Origin: Candidatus Doudnabacteria bacterium
Lineage (GTDB): Bacteria; Patescibacteriota; Doudnabacteria; UBA920
Reading direction: 5' to 3'
Assembly (NCBI GenBank): GCA_038230955.1
Contig: JBBRMG010000003.1
Location: forward strand, 1 to 57,684
DNA: 57,684 bases
Under the pieces are notes generated by a model, which had not been told where the DNA came from, did no database searches, and was given only the letters and a program-made list of their open reading frames with translations. Positions 1 through 32,549 of the stretch are shown here, one piece after another (the stretch's first letter is position 1; every line of letters begins with the position of its first letter). A program made the position numbers and the translations under genes.

Positions 1-126
1 ATTTTAAACATTGAGGAACTAGCAACAATTTTTCATTTGCCTTTGAGTGGCACCCCGGGGGCAGCGCCTGTTGAGCGAGTGGATAGCAAGAAGTCCCAGG
101 CACCGGTTAATTTGCCTACTGGATAA
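1..126 (+). CDS. 3' end of a conserved hypothetical protein (partial), of the type found upstream of CPR VirD4/TraD-like ATPases
   Basis: Frame 1 reads ILNIEELATIFHLPLSGTPGAAPVERVDSKKSQAPVNLPTG-stop. I recall the LNxEELATxFHxP...P.NLP C-terminus from CPR proteins preceding such ATPases. Confidence 0.6.
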   Translation: MLNIEELATIFHLPLSGTPGAAPVERVDSKKSQAPVNLPTG

Positions 127-243: not shown

Positions 244-2076
244 ATGCCAACAAATACAGATATTACATTCTTTGCCAAAACCAATTTCCGTAACCGGGAA
301 GTGCCTTTTGGTATTCGAGCAGATGACCGCCGGCGCCATATGTATGTCATGGGCAAAACCGGTATGGGCAAAACCACTCTCATGGAAAACATGGTCATTC
401 AGGACATCCGCAATGGTAAAGGAGTCTGCTTTATTGATCCACACGGAGATTCCGTGGTAAAAATTCTTGATTTCATTCCCAATAGCCGCATAAATGATGT
501 GGTTTATTTCAACCCGGCAGATATGGAATTTCCGATCGCCTTCAATATTTTAGAGTCGGTCGATTTAAAATACAAACATTTAGTGGCCTCCGGTTTAATG
601 GGCGTGTTTACCAAAATCTGGGCGAACATGTGGTCCGCCCGTATGGAATATATTCTCAATAATACAATTTTGGCTTTACTCGACAGCCCTGGCAATACCA
701 TGTTGGGAATTGTCCGTATGTATGTCGATAAGAAGTACCGCAAAAAAATTATCGATAATATTAAAGACCCAATGGTCCGCTCATTCTGGGTAGATGAATG
801 GGCCAACTATGCGGAAAAATTCCGGACAGAGGCGGTGGCACCTATTCAAAACAAAGTAGGGCAGTTTTTATCATCTTCTATTATTCGAAATATTGTCGGC
901 CAACCTCGTTCTACCATAGATTTGCGGGACATTATGGATAATAAAAAAATCTTGCTGTTAGACTTATCCAAAGGAAAAGTAGGGGAGGACAACTCCGCTT
1001 TGCTGGGAGCTATGATTATTACCAAATTGCAATTAGCTGCTTTGTCTCGAGTTGACATTCCTGAAGAGCAACGCGAAGATTTTTATTTATACGTGGACGA
1101 GTTCCAAAACTTTGTAACAGACAGTTTTGCTACCATATTGAGCGAAGCTCGCAAGTACAGACTCAATTTAATCATTGGGCACCAGTACATGGGCCAGCTA
1201 ATGCCCGATAAAAACAACACAAAAGTCCGCGATGCCGTGTTCGGTAACGTAGGGACAATGATTATTTTTCGCGTAGGATCTGCAGACGCTGAATACTTAG
1301 AAACTGAATTTGATCCAATATTTACCCCTAACGACATTGTTAATTTACCCAAAGCTCACATTATTTTAAAATTAATGATAAATGGGGTGGCCAGCGAACC
1401 TTTCTCCGCTGTCACATTGCCTCCGATAAGCGATGGATTTAGTGGTAACGCGGAAAAAGTAATAAAAGTATCACGAGAACGTCACGCTAACCCAGCTGCT
1501 GATGTAGAAGAAAAAATTAGTCGGTGGATGGGGGCGGAATTTCACGAACAAAGTGCGGAGTCCGCTAATCAAGAATCAATCCCTACCACTGTTAGCACTC
1601 CTACCAATACCCCCAACCGGGCTAGTGCCTCAAGCACCGCTAGTGCTAGTGCCCCTCGGAGTGCAAACGCCTACGCCCCCCCCATAAGGCGGGTTGAATC
1701 CAGCCCTGGGAGGCGTTATACGGATACTGCACCGAAGCCAGCTCCATTGCCAAAACAACCGGAGCCAAAAATTACCATAGCTGCGAGTGCGGTAGCATCA
1801 TTAAAGACTCCCACGCACTCACCAAAACCACCAGCGCATCATCCGTCAAAAACTACCAATACAGATCACAAACCTAGGGCTAGTAAGCCTCCGACTAAGT
1901 CAGATAACCCTATTTGGCACCAAGCCAATGAAATGGACTCTCAGAAATCTAATGTCTTAACCGAAAATTTGGTTGCGGCAATAGACTCTGCATTTTCCGA
2001 CAAACCTATTGTTCAGGCCGTAAACAATAATAATCAAAAAACTGTAGTTCAACCAGGGGAAGTCCATAAATTTTAA
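244..2076 (+). CDS. VirD4/TraD/HerA-FtsK-like P-loop ATPase with a long Ser/Thr/Pro-rich disordered C-terminal tail
   Basis: Walker A GKTGMGKT, FIDPHGD, Walker B LYVDEFQNF, SEARKYRLNLIIGHQY; last ~170 aa are low complexity. Confidence 0.85.
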   Translation: MPTNTDITFFAKTNFRNREVPFGIRADDRRRHMYVMGKTGMGKTTLMENMVIQDIRNGKGVCFIDPHGDSVVKILDFIPNSRINDVVYFNPADMEFPIAFNILESVDLKYKHLVASGLMGVFTKIWANMWSARMEYILNNTILALLDSPGNTMLGIVRMYVDKKYRKKIIDNIKDPMVRSFWVDEWANYAEKFRTEAVAPIQNKVGQFLSSSIIRNIVGQPRSTIDLRDIMDNKKILLLDLSKGKVGEDNSALLGAMIITKLQLAALSRVDIPEEQREDFYLYVDEFQNFVTDSFATILSEARKYRLNLIIGHQYMGQLMPDKNNTKVRDAVFGNVGTMIIFRVGSADAEYLETEFDPIFTPNDIVNLPKAHIILKLMINGVASEPFSAVTLPPISDGFSGNAEKVIKVSRERHANPAADVEEKISRWMGAEFHEQSAESANQESIPTTVSTPTNTPNRASASSTASASAPRSANAYAPPIRRVESSPGRRYTDTAPKPAPLPKQPEPKITIAASAVASLKTPTHSPKPPAHHPSKTTNTDHKPRASKPPTKSDNPIWHQANEMDSQKSNVLTENLVAAIDSAFSDKPIVQAVNNNNQKTVVQPGEVHKF

Positions 2077-26632: not shown

Positions 26633-27283
26633 ATGCCTATTCACAAAACAGTAAATTCTTCATTCTTTCTAACATGGAGCAAGCCGATGGCTTATGTTTT
26701 AGGTTATTTTGCTGCCGATGGGTGCATGTTGAAAAACAAAAGAGGAGCCCACTTTATAGAGTTTACTTCTATAGACATAGAGCTTTTGCTTTCAATACAA
26801 AATGCAATCGGGTCAAACCATAGTATTTCTGTTAGAAATCGATTTACTTTTAACCAAAATATTGCTTATCGCTTGCAAATAGGAAGCAAGCAAATATTTA
26901 ACGACTTAAGCAACTTAGGCTTCACGTCAGCAAAAAGCAATTCCTTACAATTCCCTTCAGTGCCGATGCCCTATTTTAGTCATTTTACTAGAGGTTATTT
27001 TGATGGCGATGGACATGTATCAATTATCAAACGCTTGAATCGACCATCGAGTGTAATACAGTCTGGTTTCACTTCCGGCAGTCAAAAGTTTCTTACTCAA
27101 TTGCACACGGACTTAAAAAAATATGCTAGAATCAAGGGTGGTTCGTTCTGTTACCGTAAAGGTTACAGATTGAATTTCTCTATAAAAGATTCACTCCTAT
27201 TGTATAAATACATCTATAAAGATAGTGACAATTTATTTCTTGCGAGAAAACGTTTAGCATTCGAAAGATACTACAACGTTTAA
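26633..27283 (+). CDS. Free-standing double-motif LAGLIDADG homing-endonuclease-like protein
   Basis: Motif 1 YVLGYFAADG, motif 2 FTRGYFDGDG; basic; ends 7 bp before tRNA-Asp. Confidence 0.88.
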   Translation: MPIHKTVNSSFFLTWSKPMAYVLGYFAADGCMLKNKRGAHFIEFTSIDIELLLSIQNAIGSNHSISVRNRFTFNQNIAYRLQIGSKQIFNDLSNLGFTSAKSNSLQFPSVPMPYFSHFTRGYFDGDGHVSIIKRLNRPSSVIQSGFTSGSQKFLTQLHTDLKKYARIKGGSFCYRKGYRLNFSIKDSLLLYKYIYKDSDNLFLARKRLAFERYYNV

Positions 27284-27290
27284 TGCACAT

Positions 27291-27367
27291 GGACTGGTAG
27301 CTCAGTTGGTTAGAGCATCCGCTTGTCACGCGGAAGGTCGCGGGTTCGAGTCCCGTTCAGTCCGCCA
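27291..27367 (+). tRNA. tRNA-Asp(GTC)
   Basis: GGACTGG/TCAGTCC acceptor, TCCGC-TTGTCAC-GCGGA anticodon arm, GCCA end. Confidence 0.96.
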
Positions 27368-27375
27368 AACAAATT

Positions 27376-27403
27376 CACCTCATTTCATGGGGTGTTTTTG
27401 TTT
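27376..27403 (+). terminator. Intrinsic terminator of the tRNA operon
   Basis: CACCTCAT-TTC-ATGGGGTG followed by TTTTTGTTT. Confidence 0.75.
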
Positions 27404-27518: not shown

Positions 27519-30500
27519 ATGCCAGAAAAATTCAAACCGACACCTGAGGAGCTAGGAATAAAGGAAAATCTCGCCGAAAACGAGAAGTCTTTTGATGTTG
27601 TGGAATTAAATACAGAAACAAGTATTGAAGTAAGTAAGAAAGATAAAAAACCCATTGGTTACTGGACGGATGTTTCAGAGGAAGAATTAATTAAAGAAAT
27701 AGAATCCCGAGGCTTAGATCCAAAGAATTTGCCTAGTACGTCAATCTTAAACGAAGTTAACTCTAGCCTAGTTGGGGGTCTTAATAAGAGATACGGTAGT
27801 CTGACCAAAGCAAGAAAAGCTTTAGGAGGAAAAGTTATAAAGCTTGAACCAGGTTATTGGAAGAACATGTCCGAAGAGGAACTTATCGATGAAATGAAAT
27901 CTCGCGGTCTAGATCCGAAAAATTTACCCTCGCAAGCTGAGATGAATGTGCATAATGGAGATTTACTCGGAGGTCTCACGAAACGTTATGGCACTGTTAA
28001 TAAAGCAAGGTTGGCCCTGGGTAGTGAGATTATTCAAAGGGCACGAGGTTATTGGAATAACCTCTCGGAGGAGGGTATGATTCAGGAAATTAAATCACGG
28101 GGTTTAGATCCTAAAGATTTACCCAAAACAAGCATTCTTGAAGAAAATTATTCCGACTTACTTAGTGGCCTAATAATACGCTTTGGTAAGTTGAACGATG
28201 CTCGTGAAGCTTTAGGAGGTCGGATCATTAATAAAGCCCCAGGTTATTGGAAGAATATGTCCGAAGAAGACCTTATAGCAGACATTAAAGCTAGAGGTTT
28301 GGATACTAAAAATTTGCCACTTTGGCCTGAATTAGCAAAAGACCACCCAGATTTAGCCTATGGGCTATCAAGTAAGTTTGGCGGAATGACTAACGCCAGA
28401 GAGAAACTAGGTGGAATACTCAAGATAAAGCCTAAAGGTTATTGGCAAAATATTTCTTTAGAAGATTTGGTTCAAGAAATACAGTCACGGGGACTTGACC
28501 CCAAAGATTTACCTTCAGGAGATACTCTCCGAAATGATAACCCCGATTTAATGGGTGGTTTACAAAGTCGCTTTGGAAGTTTTAATAGGGCTCGTGAAGC
28601 TCTTGGAAGTGAAATTACTCAAAGATCACAAGGTTATTGGAAGAATCTTTCCGAAGAAGACCTTATAACATACATTAAATCTAGAGGTCTTGATCCTAAG
28701 AATCTCCCGACTTATTTAGACTTAAAAAACCATAAAGGTTTGCTTCAAGGATTACAAAAACGATTTGGTAGCTTGCAGGAGGCTCGTATAAAGCTAGGTG
28801 GCGAACCTTTGCTATGGCTACCAGGTCATTGGAGGAATATCTCTATAGAGGATCTCAAGGCCCATATTAAAAAGAAAGGATTTGATCCTGAAAATTTACC
28901 AAGTAATTTAGCGAAAGAAAACCCAGCTCTTACTCATATTTTAAGAACTCGATTCGGAGATATGGCCTCTGCAAGAATAGAATTAGGGGGAGAAAAAGTA
29001 AAAAGACCGCGCGGTTATTGGAAAAATCTGTCAATCGAAAATCTTATACAGGAAATCGAATCGCGTGGCTTAGACCCAAAAAATTTGCCAGGCACTCATG
29101 AATTAGATTCAGATTTAGCAGTAGGGCTAGCGCAACGCTATGGGAGTTTTACCGAGGCTAGGACAGCCGTGGGTGGCGAAGTATTAAAAAGGCGTGGAGG
29201 ATACTGGAAATCTATTAACGAAGAAAAATTAAAGCTAGAGATATTAGAAAGGGGCTTAGATCCACATAACCTCCCTTCTTATAAAATACTTCGAGATACT
29301 CACTCCGATTTAGTGGCTGGGCTTACCCAGCGTTATGGTAGTTTTCCTCGTGCCAGAGAAATGCTTGGTGGGAGGAAATTGAAGAATGAAGCAGGTTATT
29401 GGAACAATATTTCTGAAGAGGAACTGGAAAAAGAAATTCGAGGGCGTGGTTTGGACCCTAAAAATCTTCCAGCCACAGAAGAATTTCAGATTAAGCACTC
29501 CGGATTACTAGCAGGGCTTAGGCAACGGTTTGGTACTCTAAATGAAGCAAGGGAAGCGCTAGGAGGAGTGGTCTCCGCAACATATTCTAAAAATCGTGTC
29601 GATAGGATCATGGGGCATTTGCAGGAGAAAGTAGTAGAAGTAGCTAAAGGCGAAACTGTTGAAGCTAAAGAAATTCAAGATCTGATTAATATCTTTGGTA
29701 ATGCAAATTGTCTTGATATATTATATAAATTTCATCCCGAATATCACAAATTACCAACAGGCAGAGTAAAAAGCATACTGGCAGATTATTTAGGAGAATT
29801 TTTATCAAGTTCAATTCCACTAAATTTGGAAAGTATACCTAATAGGGGTTTGGAATTACTTGAGAATCATACTTTTCAAGATAGCTTGATTGAAATAATC
29901 AAGAATGATGCGTTAAGTTCTTTTAATAAAAAGAAAAAAACTGATTTTTCGGCGAGTCCTCAATTAATAATGACTGAGTATTTAGATAATCTTAGAAACA
30001 TAGGCATTAAATATAATAATACGGATCTATCCTCGGTAATTCAGACAGTAGAGTCATATTATGATTCTCTCTACGAATTAAGCAAGCCAGAAAATATTGT
30101 GGATTTCGTTGATCAAGGGAGGCGATTTCCTGAATTTTATCAGCAAATCAATATTAAAGAAATCGCTGACAAAAAGAAAATTTTGTTGGCAGATGAAATG
30201 GGTGTGGGGAAAAGTGCTTCAGCGATATTAGCTAAAGAGTATATGAATGTTAGGCAAGCCCTAATTGTTGCGCCTAATAATGTGATAGAAACTTGGCGCA
30301 ACTATTTATTAGACAAGATTGGCGAAGATGGAAAGCAAATAGGATATTTTAAAGAAGGCAATGCCCCTAAGGTTTTAATTGTAAACAATTTGAATAGCTT
30401 AGAAGATAAAGATCGGAACGATTATGAGTATATTCTAATTTCTCAGGAAAAATTAAATAAAAAATACACTCAAAAATTGAGTTCGCTAGATTATGAAATG

Positions 30501-32549
30501 CTTATTGTGGATGAAGTGCACAAGCTAAAAAACATTAGTTCAGGTATCCGCTCCACACATTTATTAGATTTGGCTAGTAAAATCGAAGGTAAAGATAAAT
30601 ACCTAGCTTTACTATCGGGTACGCCAATACCAAATAAAGTTGAGGATATTGCAATTACTCTCAAGTTACTGTATCCAGAAGAGTTTGAACATATGCCAAA
30701 TAAAACTCTCGTAAAGAGAATCATTCATAGCGATTCCATTGATTTGCGTACTAAATTGCTCCCAAGAATGGAAATGAAAAAATTAGCAGAAAGCGTCGAA
30801 ATGCCGTCACTGGAAGAAAATATTATCAGTCCGGAGCTGTCAGAGATTGAGCAATCTATCTATGAAATGTTACTGGAAGAAGATGAGATAGAGTCAACTG
30901 AAAAAATTAGAATTTTACGTCAGTTTTTACTTAACCCCGAATTATTAGACGCTACCCCAAATATTGAAAGTTCCAAGAGAACTGCTGTAGGTGAATCATT
31001 GCGAAAAACTTTTGAAGAAAAAGATAAAGTAGTCATGTTTGTGAATGGTTATATTTCAAATGTGATCAAGGGGGAGAAAAATATTATCCATCAGCTAAAT
31101 CTTCCTCTGGATGTAGACGTGAGAGTTATTCACGGGAATATTAGCATTACCGAAAGGGCAGCTATCCAAAAAGAGCTAAAGGACTCTGAAAATAAAATTT
31201 TGCTTTTGGTTAGCGGGCAAACTGCAGACGTTGGAGTTGATTTCTCTGGGGGACAAAGCGTTTATTTCTATAACGAGCCCTGGACTCGGTATGAGCAAAA
31301 ACAAGAGCTTGGTAGAGTCTATCGCCCAGGTTTAAGTGAAGATTTAGAAAGTAAAACCTTCATTACTAAAAATACTATTGAGGAAGGCATTCATTTGTAT
31401 ATTCAAGCAAAAGAACAGGCTATTGAGAAGTTACTCCGAGGATTACCAAGGTCTGAGATCGAGAATCGATTACTAGATGAAAGTGAAAAACAGACTGATC
31501 CAAATCTAGAAGTCAACCCAGAATTGGCTCGATATTATTTTTCCGATTGGGATAAAATGGCTAAGATTTTTGCACATATTAAAGAAATTGGTCAAGAAAA
31601 CTTTATGCAGTTCTTGGCCGATTTCGGCAAAGATTATGCCAGTTGTTATTTAAATTTAGGCAGTCGCAGTTACCATGCAAATGCTAATAGAGTTTCTGGA
31701 ACAATAATAGACGAGCTTGCAAAAAAATCTCAGCAGAATCCAGAAGACCTTCTCATCCTAGATATTGCTTCAGGACCAGAAATGCTAAAGAAACATATAC
31801 CGACTCAATATCAAAGTAAAATTACGAGCATGGATGTTAATAAGGAACATTTTAAGGGCGAAGGTGATGATAGAGTTGTTGGTAGTTTCCAAAAACTACC
31901 ATTTGCCGATCGATCGGTAGATTATGCTAACTTTGCTTTGGCGTTGCATTATACCCAATTTATCCCAAGCAGAAATAATTATGAAAGATTAGAAACTCTT
32001 CTAGAACTCAATAGAGTTTTGAAAATCGGCGGGAAGGCAGTCCTGAATATGATTTATAGCATAGATTTTAAGGACGGAAATAAGTTGCGGAATTCCTTGG
32101 AGGCAATTGGCTTAAAAATCAAAGATGAATACAGCGGCGAGGTACAGGTTGGTAAAAATTATAAATCAAAGATTTTAACATTAGAGAAAACCGAACACCT
32201 TAACGAATCGTTAGAAGACATGGTCGATAAAATCGGTAAAGATGATTTAGATGGATTGAAGTTCGTTGGCAATAAATCAAGTGTCAGGGATACGAGGAAA
32301 ATTATCGAACAGTTTGAATTAGGTGGTAAGCAATTTAAGATTGATTTTAATGAAGAAGATAAGCAAGTGCTGGCTGAAGAACAAGAAATCACTCGACAAG
32401 GCGAAACTCTAAAACTTCAATATGGCAGTATCCAGGATATCAATAAAGAAGATATCATTTCTAATGGATTTACTCGAATTTTAATTAAAGATAAGTACAT
32501 ATTATTTAAAAAACTTGAAAAAGGCACTGGGGTTGTAGTAATTAAATAG
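27519..32549 (+). CDS. 1676-aa protein: ten ~64-aa tandem repeats, SNF2-family ATPase/helicase, C-terminal class I SAM-dependent methyltransferase-like domain
   Basis: Repeats at aa ~47-687; motif I LADEMGVGKS (aa 890), II IVDEVH, III LSGTP, VI QELGRVYRPG (aa 1262); MTase-like LDIASGPE (aa 1414), SMDVN, LPFADRSVDY. Confidence 0.88.
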   Translation: MPEKFKPTPEELGIKENLAENEKSFDVVELNTETSIEVSKKDKKPIGYWTDVSEEELIKEIESRGLDPKNLPSTSILNEVNSSLVGGLNKRYGSLTKARKALGGKVIKLEPGYWKNMSEEELIDEMKSRGLDPKNLPSQAEMNVHNGDLLGGLTKRYGTVNKARLALGSEIIQRARGYWNNLSEEGMIQEIKSRGLDPKDLPKTSILEENYSDLLSGLIIRFGKLNDAREALGGRIINKAPGYWKNMSEEDLIADIKARGLDTKNLPLWPELAKDHPDLAYGLSSKFGGMTNAREKLGGILKIKPKGYWQNISLEDLVQEIQSRGLDPKDLPSGDTLRNDNPDLMGGLQSRFGSFNRAREALGSEITQRSQGYWKNLSEEDLITYIKSRGLDPKNLPTYLDLKNHKGLLQGLQKRFGSLQEARIKLGGEPLLWLPGHWRNISIEDLKAHIKKKGFDPENLPSNLAKENPALTHILRTRFGDMASARIELGGEKVKRPRGYWKNLSIENLIQEIESRGLDPKNLPGTHELDSDLAVGLAQRYGSFTEARTAVGGEVLKRRGGYWKSINEEKLKLEILERGLDPHNLPSYKILRDTHSDLVAGLTQRYGSFPRAREMLGGRKLKNEAGYWNNISEEELEKEIRGRGLDPKNLPATEEFQIKHSGLLAGLRQRFGTLNEAREALGGVVSATYSKNRVDRIMGHLQEKVVEVAKGETVEAKEIQDLINIFGNANCLDILYKFHPEYHKLPTGRVKSILADYLGEFLSSSIPLNLESIPNRGLELLENHTFQDSLIEIIKNDALSSFNKKKKTDFSASPQLIMTEYLDNLRNIGIKYNNTDLSSVIQTVESYYDSLYELSKPENIVDFVDQGRRFPEFYQQINIKEIADKKKILLADEMGVGKSASAILAKEYMNVRQALIVAPNNVIETWRNYLLDKIGEDGKQIGYFKEGNAPKVLIVNNLNSLEDKDRNDYEYILISQEKLNKKYTQKLSSLDYEMLIVDEVHKLKNISSGIRSTHLLDLASKIEGKDKYLALLSGTPIPNKVEDIAITLKLLYPEEFEHMPNKTLVKRIIHSDSIDLRTKLLPRMEMKKLAESVEMPSLEENIISPELSEIEQSIYEMLLEEDEIESTEKIRILRQFLLNPELLDATPNIESSKRTAVGESLRKTFEEKDKVVMFVNGYISNVIKGEKNIIHQLNLPLDVDVRVIHGNISITERAAIQKELKDSENKILLLVSGQTADVGVDFSGGQSVYFYNEPWTRYEQKQELGRVYRPGLSEDLESKTFITKNTIEEGIHLYIQAKEQAIEKLLRGLPRSEIENRLLDESEKQTDPNLEVNPELARYYFSDWDKMAKIFAHIKEIGQENFMQFLADFGKDYASCYLNLGSRSYHANANRVSGTIIDELAKKSQQNPEDLLILDIASGPEMLKKHIPTQYQSKITSMDVNKEHFKGEGDDRVVGSFQKLPFADRSVDYANFALALHYTQFIPSRNNYERLETLLELNRVLKIGGKAVLNMIYSIDFKDGNKLRNSLEAIGLKIKDEYSGEVQVGKNYKSKILTLEKTEHLNESLEDMVDKIGKDDLDGLKFVGNKSSVRDTRKIIEQFELGGKQFKIDFNEEDKQVLAEEQEITRQGETLKLQYGSIQDINKEDIISNGFTRILIKDKYILFKKLEKGTGVVVIK
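27657..29580 (+). repeat. Coding tandem repeat: 10 units of about 62-65 aa
   Basis: Consensus G(Y/H)WkNxSeEdLixeIxsRGLDPKnLP-x(8-12)-LxxGLxxRFGsxxxARxxLGG, counted ten times. Confidence 0.93.

Follow-up and report, generated by a model that had tools for sequence, protein, structure and literature searches.

TALE, PPR and Pumilio repeats are near-identical units of ~34–36 amino acids (aa) in which two or three variable positions take residues from a small alphabet. The (HhH)2 repeats of Methanopyrus topoisomerase V and the SANT-SLIDE modules of ISWI and Chd1 serve differently, as accessory DNA-binding modules that tether their enzymes rather than read DNA base by base, and Snf2 enzymes are known as double-stranded-DNA translocases. 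Accessory DNA-binding repeats on DNA motors are an established principle, and the HNH_repeat (homing endonuclease associated repeat) family is already catalogued. Here we analyse a 57,684-nucleotide (nt) stretch of a Candidatus Doudnabacteria genome (assembly GCA_038230955.1, contig JBBRMG010000003.1, positions 1 to 57,684; hereafter the window), which encodes a 1676-aa protein, P0001, with a tandem array of ten units at its N-terminus. The array forms a divergent HNH_repeat subfamily and is fused to a Snf2 ATPase and a methyltransferase. New are this subfamily, its fusion to the two enzymes, and a repeat slot, variable in number and type, that recurs across the enzyme family.

A ten-unit array of the HNH_repeat family

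The array is a genuine feature of P0001. A single uninterrupted open reading frame (ORF; 27519-32549, + strand) encodes the protein, and anchoring on G[YH]W divides residues 47-690 (nt 27657-29588; 644 aa) into ten tandem units (Table 1). An initial annotation, made from the letters of the DNA, had described ten units with a conserved scaffold, and this description stands: every unit scores 82-104 bits (E 1e-25 to 1e-34) against a profile hidden Markov model (HMM) of the unit. Searched against a six-frame translation of the window, the same HMM matched nothing beyond the ten. Repeat finding at the DNA level recovered a 195-nt period; Tandem Repeats Finder, run on the window, missed the array because its units are only 55% identical in DNA. 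The sole public sequencing run that holds the stretch is a sediment metagenome, and its independent Logan assembly (contigs, ~5x depth) carries units 1-5 and units 6-8 each in one piece and with no differences, which confirms contiguity across each of these two blocks. Kept as ~5x contigs, the run carries no information on population variation.

Profile searches in both directions place the array in HNH_repeat (PF18780), the family that the initial annotation had named. P0001 as a whole reaches 57.7 bits (E 1.4e-15), where 26 is the gathering score; the alignment covers profile positions 1-52 of 54, and precomputed database domains assign PF18780 both to P0001 and to a close relative, P0002. 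Taken singly, five units (2, 4, 5, 6 and 10) reach 14-22 bits, with E from 3e-4 to 0.06; units 1, 3, 8 and 9 match nothing, and unit 7 has no match to HNH_repeat. These weak single-unit scores mark the array units as a divergent HNH_repeat subfamily. The match is reciprocal. A profile of 27 units, searched against 1.84 billion representative proteins at E<=1e-3, retrieved 165 clusters, and 46 of the best 86 are HNH_repeat proteins that carry PF18780 (best E 3.7e-156). Some retrieved relatives contain eight canonical HNH_repeat repeats at 467 bits, and BLASTP aligns P0001 with the HNH_repeat array of a distant protein, P0027, at E 1e-25.

The units share their plan with canonical HNH_repeat repeats and differ in detail and company. 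Common to both, in the first half, are an acidic helix 1, a G..P-(S/T) motif and helix 2; the second half comprises helix 3, which ends in R-(F/Y/H)-G-(S/G), helix 4, which ends in A..(L)G, and a linker that closes with KP.GYW. The two agree in helix pattern and in the order of motifs, and the repeats stand in tandem with a period of ~55-68 aa. The array subfamily differs in having its own GYW and RGLDPKNLP motifs, in lacking an HNH nuclease and in being fused to a Snf2 ATPase and a methyltransferase. The family takes its name from an HNH or homing endonuclease domain, which the Pfam model itself does not demand; neither Pfam nor NCBIfam detects a nuclease domain in P0001, and HNH is not among the 25 commonest Pfam families matched by the best 86 relatives. 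Within that set most HNH_repeat relatives are repeat-only proteins; some other HNH_repeat proteins bear NUMOD-like or helix-turn-helix (HTH) modules.

Predicted fold, variable positions and charge

Structure prediction supports the helical units foreseen in the initial annotation. In AlphaFold2 models every unit is predicted to fold into a small bundle of helices, with a predicted local distance difference test score (pLDDT) of 82-85. A single unit modelled with 27 aligned units reached pLDDT 82 and a predicted template modelling score (pTM) of 0.60. A four-unit model (units 3-6), whose MAFFT input of sliding four-unit windows was staggered and not in register, reached a mean pLDDT of 85 and a pTM of 0.47, with pLDDT falling to ~72-75 at each linker; a pTM this low leaves the packing between units uncertain and does not predict a continuous superhelix. 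In both models the helices occupy unit residues 2-5, 8-17, 28-34, 36-46 and 49-55, so that the "segment after LP" singled out initially as differing in every unit would span helix 2 and the helix 3 cap.

The predicted fold resembles no solved structure closely. Foldseek matched the four-unit model only to generic alpha-solenoids (best E 0.016, TM 0.12), and in BFVD the single-unit model found only uncharacterised phage proteins (E 0.2-0.6). Canonical DNA-binding folds (HTH, HhH, SAP/HeH) gave no significant profile or structure match to the units. In the profile search of PDB sequences the best match, an acetolactate synthase regulatory subunit (E 0.009), was judged not meaningful.

Variation within the unit is concentrated in a few columns. 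Computed over 27 units from four proteins (P0001 and three close relatives, described below) and numbered by the first aligned unit, the invariant or near-invariant positions are W3, G19, D21, L25, P26, L42, G47, A52, L56 and G57. Column entropy peaks at 28-31 and 33-37 (up to 3.7 bits) and at 40-41 and 44-45, and insertions and deletions are confined to high-entropy columns. All 27 variable segments differ, with no small recurring alphabet. The ten variable segments that the initial annotation quoted for P0001 are present letter for letter. The conserved motifs it listed hold in general and fail in four units: unit 4 has LDTK and KFG, unit 7 has GHW, KKGFDPENLP and IL, unit 8 has AVGG and unit 9 has NEEKL.

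The exposed variable positions of helix 3 largely avoid acidic residues. On the predicted helices, with solvent exposure deduced from helical periodicity and residue type, the most variable positions map to helix 2 and to the exposed side of helix 3. Those on helix 3 are chiefly Q, R, S, K, T and small hydrophobics; Asp/Glu make up 2% and Lys/Arg 20%, and among the window's units none of 40 such positions is acidic. The corresponding figures are 18% Asp/Glu and 14% Lys/Arg for helix 2, 39% and 16% for the exposed positions of helix 1, 16% and 13% for those of helix 4, and 10% and 27-29% for the linkers. The array alone forms a basic segment of P0001 (pI 9.0). In the model, the non-acidic variable face has a conserved Arg, basic linkers and a Gly-Ser hairpin as its neighbours, an arrangement suggestive of a surface that faces an anionic polymer.

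Arrays change by duplication, loss and partial homogenisation

The units of P0001 have diverged far from one another. Compared two by two, they are 37-61% identical as protein (mean 50%) and 42-63% as DNA (mean 55%), values that indicate old copies, not recently homogenised. One tract departs from this pattern. As first noticed in the initial annotation, units 4 and 6 begin with near-identical DNA: over the first 57 nt they agree at 91%, where the mean of all pairs is 63% (sd 8%), all 14 codons of shared residues in this tract are identical against a background of 43%, and beyond it identity is only 50%. Such a mosaic is best described from these figures as a gene-conversion or recombination tract. 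It is the sole exchange detectable, and it spans the conserved helix 1, not the variable part. The LGSEIxQR linker common to units 2 and 5, which had been taken for a second trace of shuffling, is a similarity at the protein level that is not seen in DNA.

Close relatives of P0001 are few and differ in unit number and order. Among 5.8 billion proteins, only three others (P0002, P0003 and P0004) have both the repeat subtype and the full architecture; P0001 has ten units and these have eight, five and four, with no one-to-one orthology between units. In a maximum-likelihood tree the 27 units form a star, with good support only for duplicates within a protein, and from this comparison no unit is recognisable as a conserved "word" between proteins. 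In P0002, units 1 and 5 (73% identical) and units 2 and 6 (82%) are the paired copies of a recent two-unit block duplication. The four units of P0004 are 67-71% identical to one another, against ~50% elsewhere. Adjacent units of the unit-7 and unit-8 types, in that order and each with a shortened variable segment, are found once in the window and at two places in P0002.

Block duplication, differing unit numbers and the units 4/6 tract together imply that arrays evolve by duplication, loss and partial homogenisation. The shuffling proposed initially is borne out in this sense, by the unit counts, the P0002 duplication and the units 4/6 mosaic; the exchange observed homogenises helix 1 and leaves the variable part unswapped.

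The repeat subtype also occurs outside this enzyme. Two free-standing proteins, P0005 and P0006, join an uncharacterised N-terminal domain to five or three units, and their genes lie between the RNase J / solute-binding-protein genes and a gene for deoxyhypusine synthase; the P0005 loci contain SecG as well. A metagenome scan for GLDPKNLP found only a free-standing gene of the P0006 type.

The array precedes a Snf2 ATPase and a methyltransferase

Behind the array, P0001 continues as a two-enzyme protein. A linker domain with the motif FG..N..DILY.FHPEY is kept in all Patescibacteria orthologues, whichever N-terminal repeat type precedes it; BLASTP between this domain and the C-terminal domain of P0016, a repeat-only protein, found nothing. 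The ATPase that follows is, by its profile and sequence matches, a genuine Snf2 family member with both lobes present, and its PDB sequence matches are the SsoRad54-like 1z63, Chd1 and ISWI (E ~1e-11 to 1e-12). Its Walker A motif reads DEMGVGKSAS (30183-30212, residues 889-898) in place of the usual GKT, and the same GKSAS variant appears in two distant HNH_repeat-Snf2 proteins, P0027 and P0046. Downstream lie a class I S-adenosylmethionine (SAM) methyltransferase domain and a conserved C-terminal domain. Sequence searches found no PDB relative for the methyltransferase and C-terminal part.

P0001 stands apart from the helicases of known defence systems. NCBIfam and PADLOC return only weak matches, confined to the helicase lobes, to RapA, DrmD, DpdE, ZorD, BrxH and HmaA, and all fall far below the cut-offs. 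With HmaA, ZorD, DrmD, BrxH and DpdE it has in common a Snf2 core, an associated methyltransferase in some cases, and the location of several orthologues on apparent mobile elements. It differs in that only the helicase lobes match (PADLOC at most 64 bits; NCBIfam 33-54 bits against cut-offs of 500-1100) and in that the helicase models of those systems include neither an N-terminal repeat array nor an enzyme of the Methyltransf_8 type.

Orthologues carry other repeats, or none, at the N-terminal position

Orthologues keep the enzymes and change the repeats. The core of P0001 (residues ~700-1676: linker, Snf2 ATPase, methyltransferase and C-terminal domain) has orthologues in 24 species-level genomes at 39-51% identity, or 44-51% in all but two. 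Their hosts are mostly Patescibacteria, among them Saccharimonadia and Taylor-, Kaiser-, Vogel-, Peri- and Gracilibacteria. The HNH_repeat-type unit of the window is absent from all 24. In its place, one group has a 66-80-aa "PEGW...HPEWF...YHPDLV" unit in 3 to ~13 tandem copies, for which no single Pfam family accounts. Elsewhere the slot holds HTH-like units of ~100 aa (L014), an "AREYLALLAE" repeat (L020) or a Trp-rich repeat of ~65 aa (L016 and L017, Vogelbacteria), and in L005 and L008 the position is without an array. Many of the orthologue repeats resemble HTH units. Of six N-termini tested, two of the PEGW group pass the threshold for an HTH family of Pfam by summed score, L013 with HTH_29 (45 bits) and L011 with HTH_28 (37 bits). 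An hhalign comparison of window units with PEGW units gave a 47% probability over 19 columns, which does not demonstrate homology of the two repeat types.

A distant lineage reproduces the same combination in two genes. In P0027, from a GC-rich genome, ~13 canonical HNH_repeat units stand in front of a Snf2 ATPase; a separate 181-aa Methyltransf_8/11 gene follows directly, and MerR/HTH_17, TniQ and TnsA-like genes lie nearby. Read from its gene content, this locus is a two-gene version of the triad of array, Snf2 ATPase and methyltransferase.

The enzyme family is often associated with mobile elements. A large serine recombinase adjoins the gene in 5 of 26 loci and a TraG/VirD4-like ATPase in 2 of 26; with these neighbours, the family appears often to reside on integrative or conjugative elements. 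IMG/VR viral contigs contain no close relative; the Snf2 proteins they do hold are generic and 21-35% identical. Just downstream of orthologues, in eight and six loci, two clusters of small ORFs stand in convergent orientation, 101-175 aa long and without a Pfam match; no counterpart was seen in the window.

What the array may do

The reading we prefer, and hold to be evenly poised between right and wrong, is that the array is a multivalent nucleic-acid tether or targeting module. The attached enzyme, the HTH-type arrays of some orthologues, the recurring triad and the charge pattern are the grounds for this preference; that the units bind nucleic acid, and by which face, we infer. P0001 would begin with a string of small helical HNH_repeat domains, each of one short and four longer helices, joined by basic linkers of ~8 residues. 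From the N-terminus this string would hold the Snf2 motor and the methyltransferase on DNA and bias the place where they act. Helix 1 and the RGLDPKNLP loop would serve as the conserved scaffold of the unit. Contact with an anionic ligand would fall to the non-acidic, polar or basic face presented by helix 3, to the R(F/Y)G-S/T hairpin that leads to helix 4 and to the K/R-rich linker. Preference may be tuned by the parts that differ between units, namely helix 2 and the variable positions on helix 3. Unit duplication, deletion and gene conversion would let arrays grow, shrink and partly homogenise. Topoisomerase V and the SANT-SLIDE remodellers offer a functional analogy only, in that they too have small helical domains, sometimes in tandem, on a topoisomerase or DNA motor; no sequence or fold relation is detectable, the unit profile matching topoisomerase V at chance level (E 0.59) and Foldseek finding nothing.

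Several observations weigh against such a tether. In the one paper we found that mentions it, HNH_repeat is listed among repeat families that lack a structural template, and we found no functional study of it or of the Snf2-methyltransferase family. Searched against the PDB, the single-unit model has no significant Foldseek match (best E 2.3, TM <=0.42), and the unit profile finds only chance matches among PDB sequences. Likeness to Pfam SAP (13.9-19.9 bits, cut-off 23.9) and to HTH stays below threshold. The array is only mildly basic, with a net charge of +8 over 644 aa; single units range from -3 to +5, four of them acidic, and helix 1 has conserved acidic residues. In its family matches the methyltransferase is like enzymes that act on RNA or small molecules (Methyltransf_8 being the Rrp8 type) and unlike classical DNA methyltransferases.

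A more ambitious proposal, advanced in the initial annotation, makes the array a sequence-specific modular DNA reader whose units read sub-sites through helices 2 and 3 and are reprogrammed by unit exchange. The parallel with TALE, PPR and Pumilio proteins holds in outline, in that all have tandem helical repeats with a conserved scaffold, localised variable positions and copy numbers that vary between homologues. Variation here is focused on a helix-turn-helix-like pair, helix 2 and the exposed helix 3, length changes included; homologues differ in the number and order of units, the adjacent pair of unit-7 and unit-8 types recurs three times, and orthologues swap whole arrays of unrelated repeats at this position. 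The parallel breaks down in detail. Units are domain-sized (~65 aa), ~50% identical and variable at ~13 positions; none of the 27 variable segments recurs, there is no small residue alphabet, and the star-like tree offers neither a conserved "word" nor one-to-one orthology. Helix 2 positions are 18% acidic, the low four-unit pTM and the pLDDT dips at linkers suggest beads on a string and not a DNA-tracking superhelix, and the only exchange seen moved the conserved helix 1, leaving the variable part in place. The code as proposed is not supported, and we regard sequence-specific modular reading as distinctly unlikely.

Two further explanations give the array other partners. It might be a scaffold or spacer for protein interactions, its units binding one another or a repeated or oligomeric partner such as RNA polymerase, nucleoid proteins or a conjugation or defence component; its variable patch would then be partner-specific or unconstrained surface. 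The near-neutral net charge and the conserved acidic surface of helix 1 would suit this, as would the lack of any match to a solved DNA-binding fold, the repeat-only state of most HNH_repeat relatives, and the presence of the subtype in P0005 and P0006, which have no nucleic-acid enzyme and a conserved chromosomal neighbourhood. Two distant lineages nevertheless have HNH_repeat arrays joined to Snf2 ATPases by fusion or linkage, some relatives bear NUMOD or HTH modules, the orthologue slot is filled by repeats of which some reach HTH thresholds, and the exposed face of helix 3 excludes acidic residues; we rate a protein scaffold as unlikely. Alternatively, the array could bind RNA (rRNA, tRNA or R-loops) for an Rrp8-type methyltransferase, with the ATPase acting as a remodeller of RNA or RNA-DNA hybrids. 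Methyltransf_8 and Methyltransf_11 are indeed the best methyltransferase families, the Pfam scan of P0001 matches no DNA-methyltransferase family, and the gene adjoins tRNA genes. We nonetheless rate RNA binding as very unlikely: the ATPase core is of the Snf2 type, and the Snf2 enzymes known so far are translocases of double-stranded DNA; orthologues do not keep the tRNA neighbourhood, and several of them that lie beside serine recombinases or TraG/VirD4-like ATPases point to DNA transactions on mobile elements.

The orthologues permit a bolder conjecture, unlikely in our estimate, in which the N-terminus of the Snf2-methyltransferase is a plug-in targeting slot, the helix 2/3 patch is the true specificity surface and the whole is an evolvable targeting system of Patescibacteria mobile elements. 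The slot may accept at least four unrelated small helical repeat types (the HNH_repeat type, the HTH-like PEGW type and two others) in 0 to about 14 copies, and the array may programme where the translocase deposits methyl groups, or what is protected or excluded. Whatever its outcome, the comparative pattern gives HNH_repeat its first concrete, testable functional hypothesis, multivalent nucleic-acid tethering or targeting, and draws attention to a widespread, unstudied enzyme family of ultra-small bacteria that often lies beside recombinases or conjugation genes. Should arrays set target specificity, nature would have supplied a motor that modifies DNA with modular targeting; should they be unspecific tethers, the result is a useful annotation and otherwise an ordinary finding.

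Genomic context

Table 1. Coordinates of features in the window and in the compared loci.
Feature	Locus	Coordinates (strand)	P0001 residues	Length (aa)	Remarks
N-terminal leader	window	27519-27656 (+)	1-46		acidic; MPEKFKPTPEEL conserved in P0002 and P0003
Unit 1	window	27657-27851 (+)	47-111	65	
Unit 2	window	27852-28046 (+)	112-176	65	top single-unit score against Pfam HNH_repeat, 21.6 bits
Unit 3	window	28047-28241 (+)	177-241	65	
Unit 4	window	28242-28436 (+)	242-306	65	
Unit 5	window	28437-28631 (+)	307-371	65	
Unit 6	window	28632-28823 (+)	372-435	64	
Unit 7	window	28824-29012 (+)	436-498	63	most divergent and most basic; type common to P0002 units 1 and 5
Unit 8	window	29013-29198 (+)	499-560	62	short variable segment; type common to P0002 units 2 and 6
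Unit 9	window	29199-29393 (+)	561-625	65	
Unit 10	window	29394-29588 (+)	626-690	65	
Conserved linker domain	window	29589-30170 (+)	691-884		no Pfam family
Snf2 ATPase N-lobe	window	30171-30896 (+)	885-1126		SNF2-rel_dom, 70.5 bits
Helicase_C lobe	window	31008-31331 (+)	1164-1271		41.4 bits
Class I SAM methyltransferase	window	31686-32129 (+)	1390-1537		Methyltransf_8, 30.7 bits (cut-off 27); Methyltransf_11, 29.1 bits
C-terminal domain	window	32130-32549 (+)	1538-1676		conserved; includes stop codon; no Pfam match
tRNA-Asp(GTC) and terminator-like hairpin	window	27291-27394 (+)			just upstream of the P0001 ORF
P0002 units 1-8	L083	331-1863			
P0005/P0006	L084	8001-9344			free-standing
P0005/P0006	L111	5272-6594			free-standing
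P0027 and separate Methyltransf_8/11 gene	L087	6001-11284			
PEGW-type array	L004	5418-8100			
PEGW-type array	L011	5058-8100			
PEGW-type array	L026	5922-8100			
PEGW-type array	L022, L006, L024, L025, L019, L003, L009				
Recombinase or TraG/VirD4-like neighbour	L001	1483-3084			
Recombinase or TraG/VirD4-like neighbour	L004	3292-4905			
Recombinase or TraG/VirD4-like neighbour	L006	3768-5423			
Recombinase or TraG/VirD4-like neighbour	L020	5053-6309			
Recombinase or TraG/VirD4-like neighbour	L024	13946-15559			
Recombinase or TraG/VirD4-like neighbour	L002	6411-9170			
Recombinase or TraG/VirD4-like neighbour	L011	2512-4989			
Small convergent ORF	L003	4374-4898 (-)			
Small convergent ORF	L014	10930-11457 (-)			
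Small convergent ORF	L024	10992-11369 (-)			
Small convergent ORF	L016	11010-11333 (-)			
Small convergent ORF	L022	5111-5416 (-)			

The P0001 gene is a separate transcription unit, as judged from the tRNA-Asp gene and terminator-like hairpin upstream of it. Its neighbours in the window are of the housekeeping kind and encode an F-type ATP synthase, a PolyA_pol-domain protein (probably a CCA-adding enzyme), RmuC, NYN and XseA, together with a UvrD-type helicase that has a PD-(D/E)XK nuclease domain (AddA-like). Partner genes of the defence systems Hma, Zorya, DISARM, BREX and Dpd are absent from the window, and we found no synteny between the window and the orthologous loci, nor an att-like direct repeat of the tRNA-Asp 3' end. 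Guanine-plus-cytosine (GC) content is 0.36-0.39 across the gene (28000-32000) against 0.41-0.46 in the flanks, and GC skew is strongly positive there. Directly upstream, between tRNA-Met(CAT) and tRNA-Asp, the ORF list places a 216-aa ORF (26633-27283) with LAGLIDADG-like motifs.

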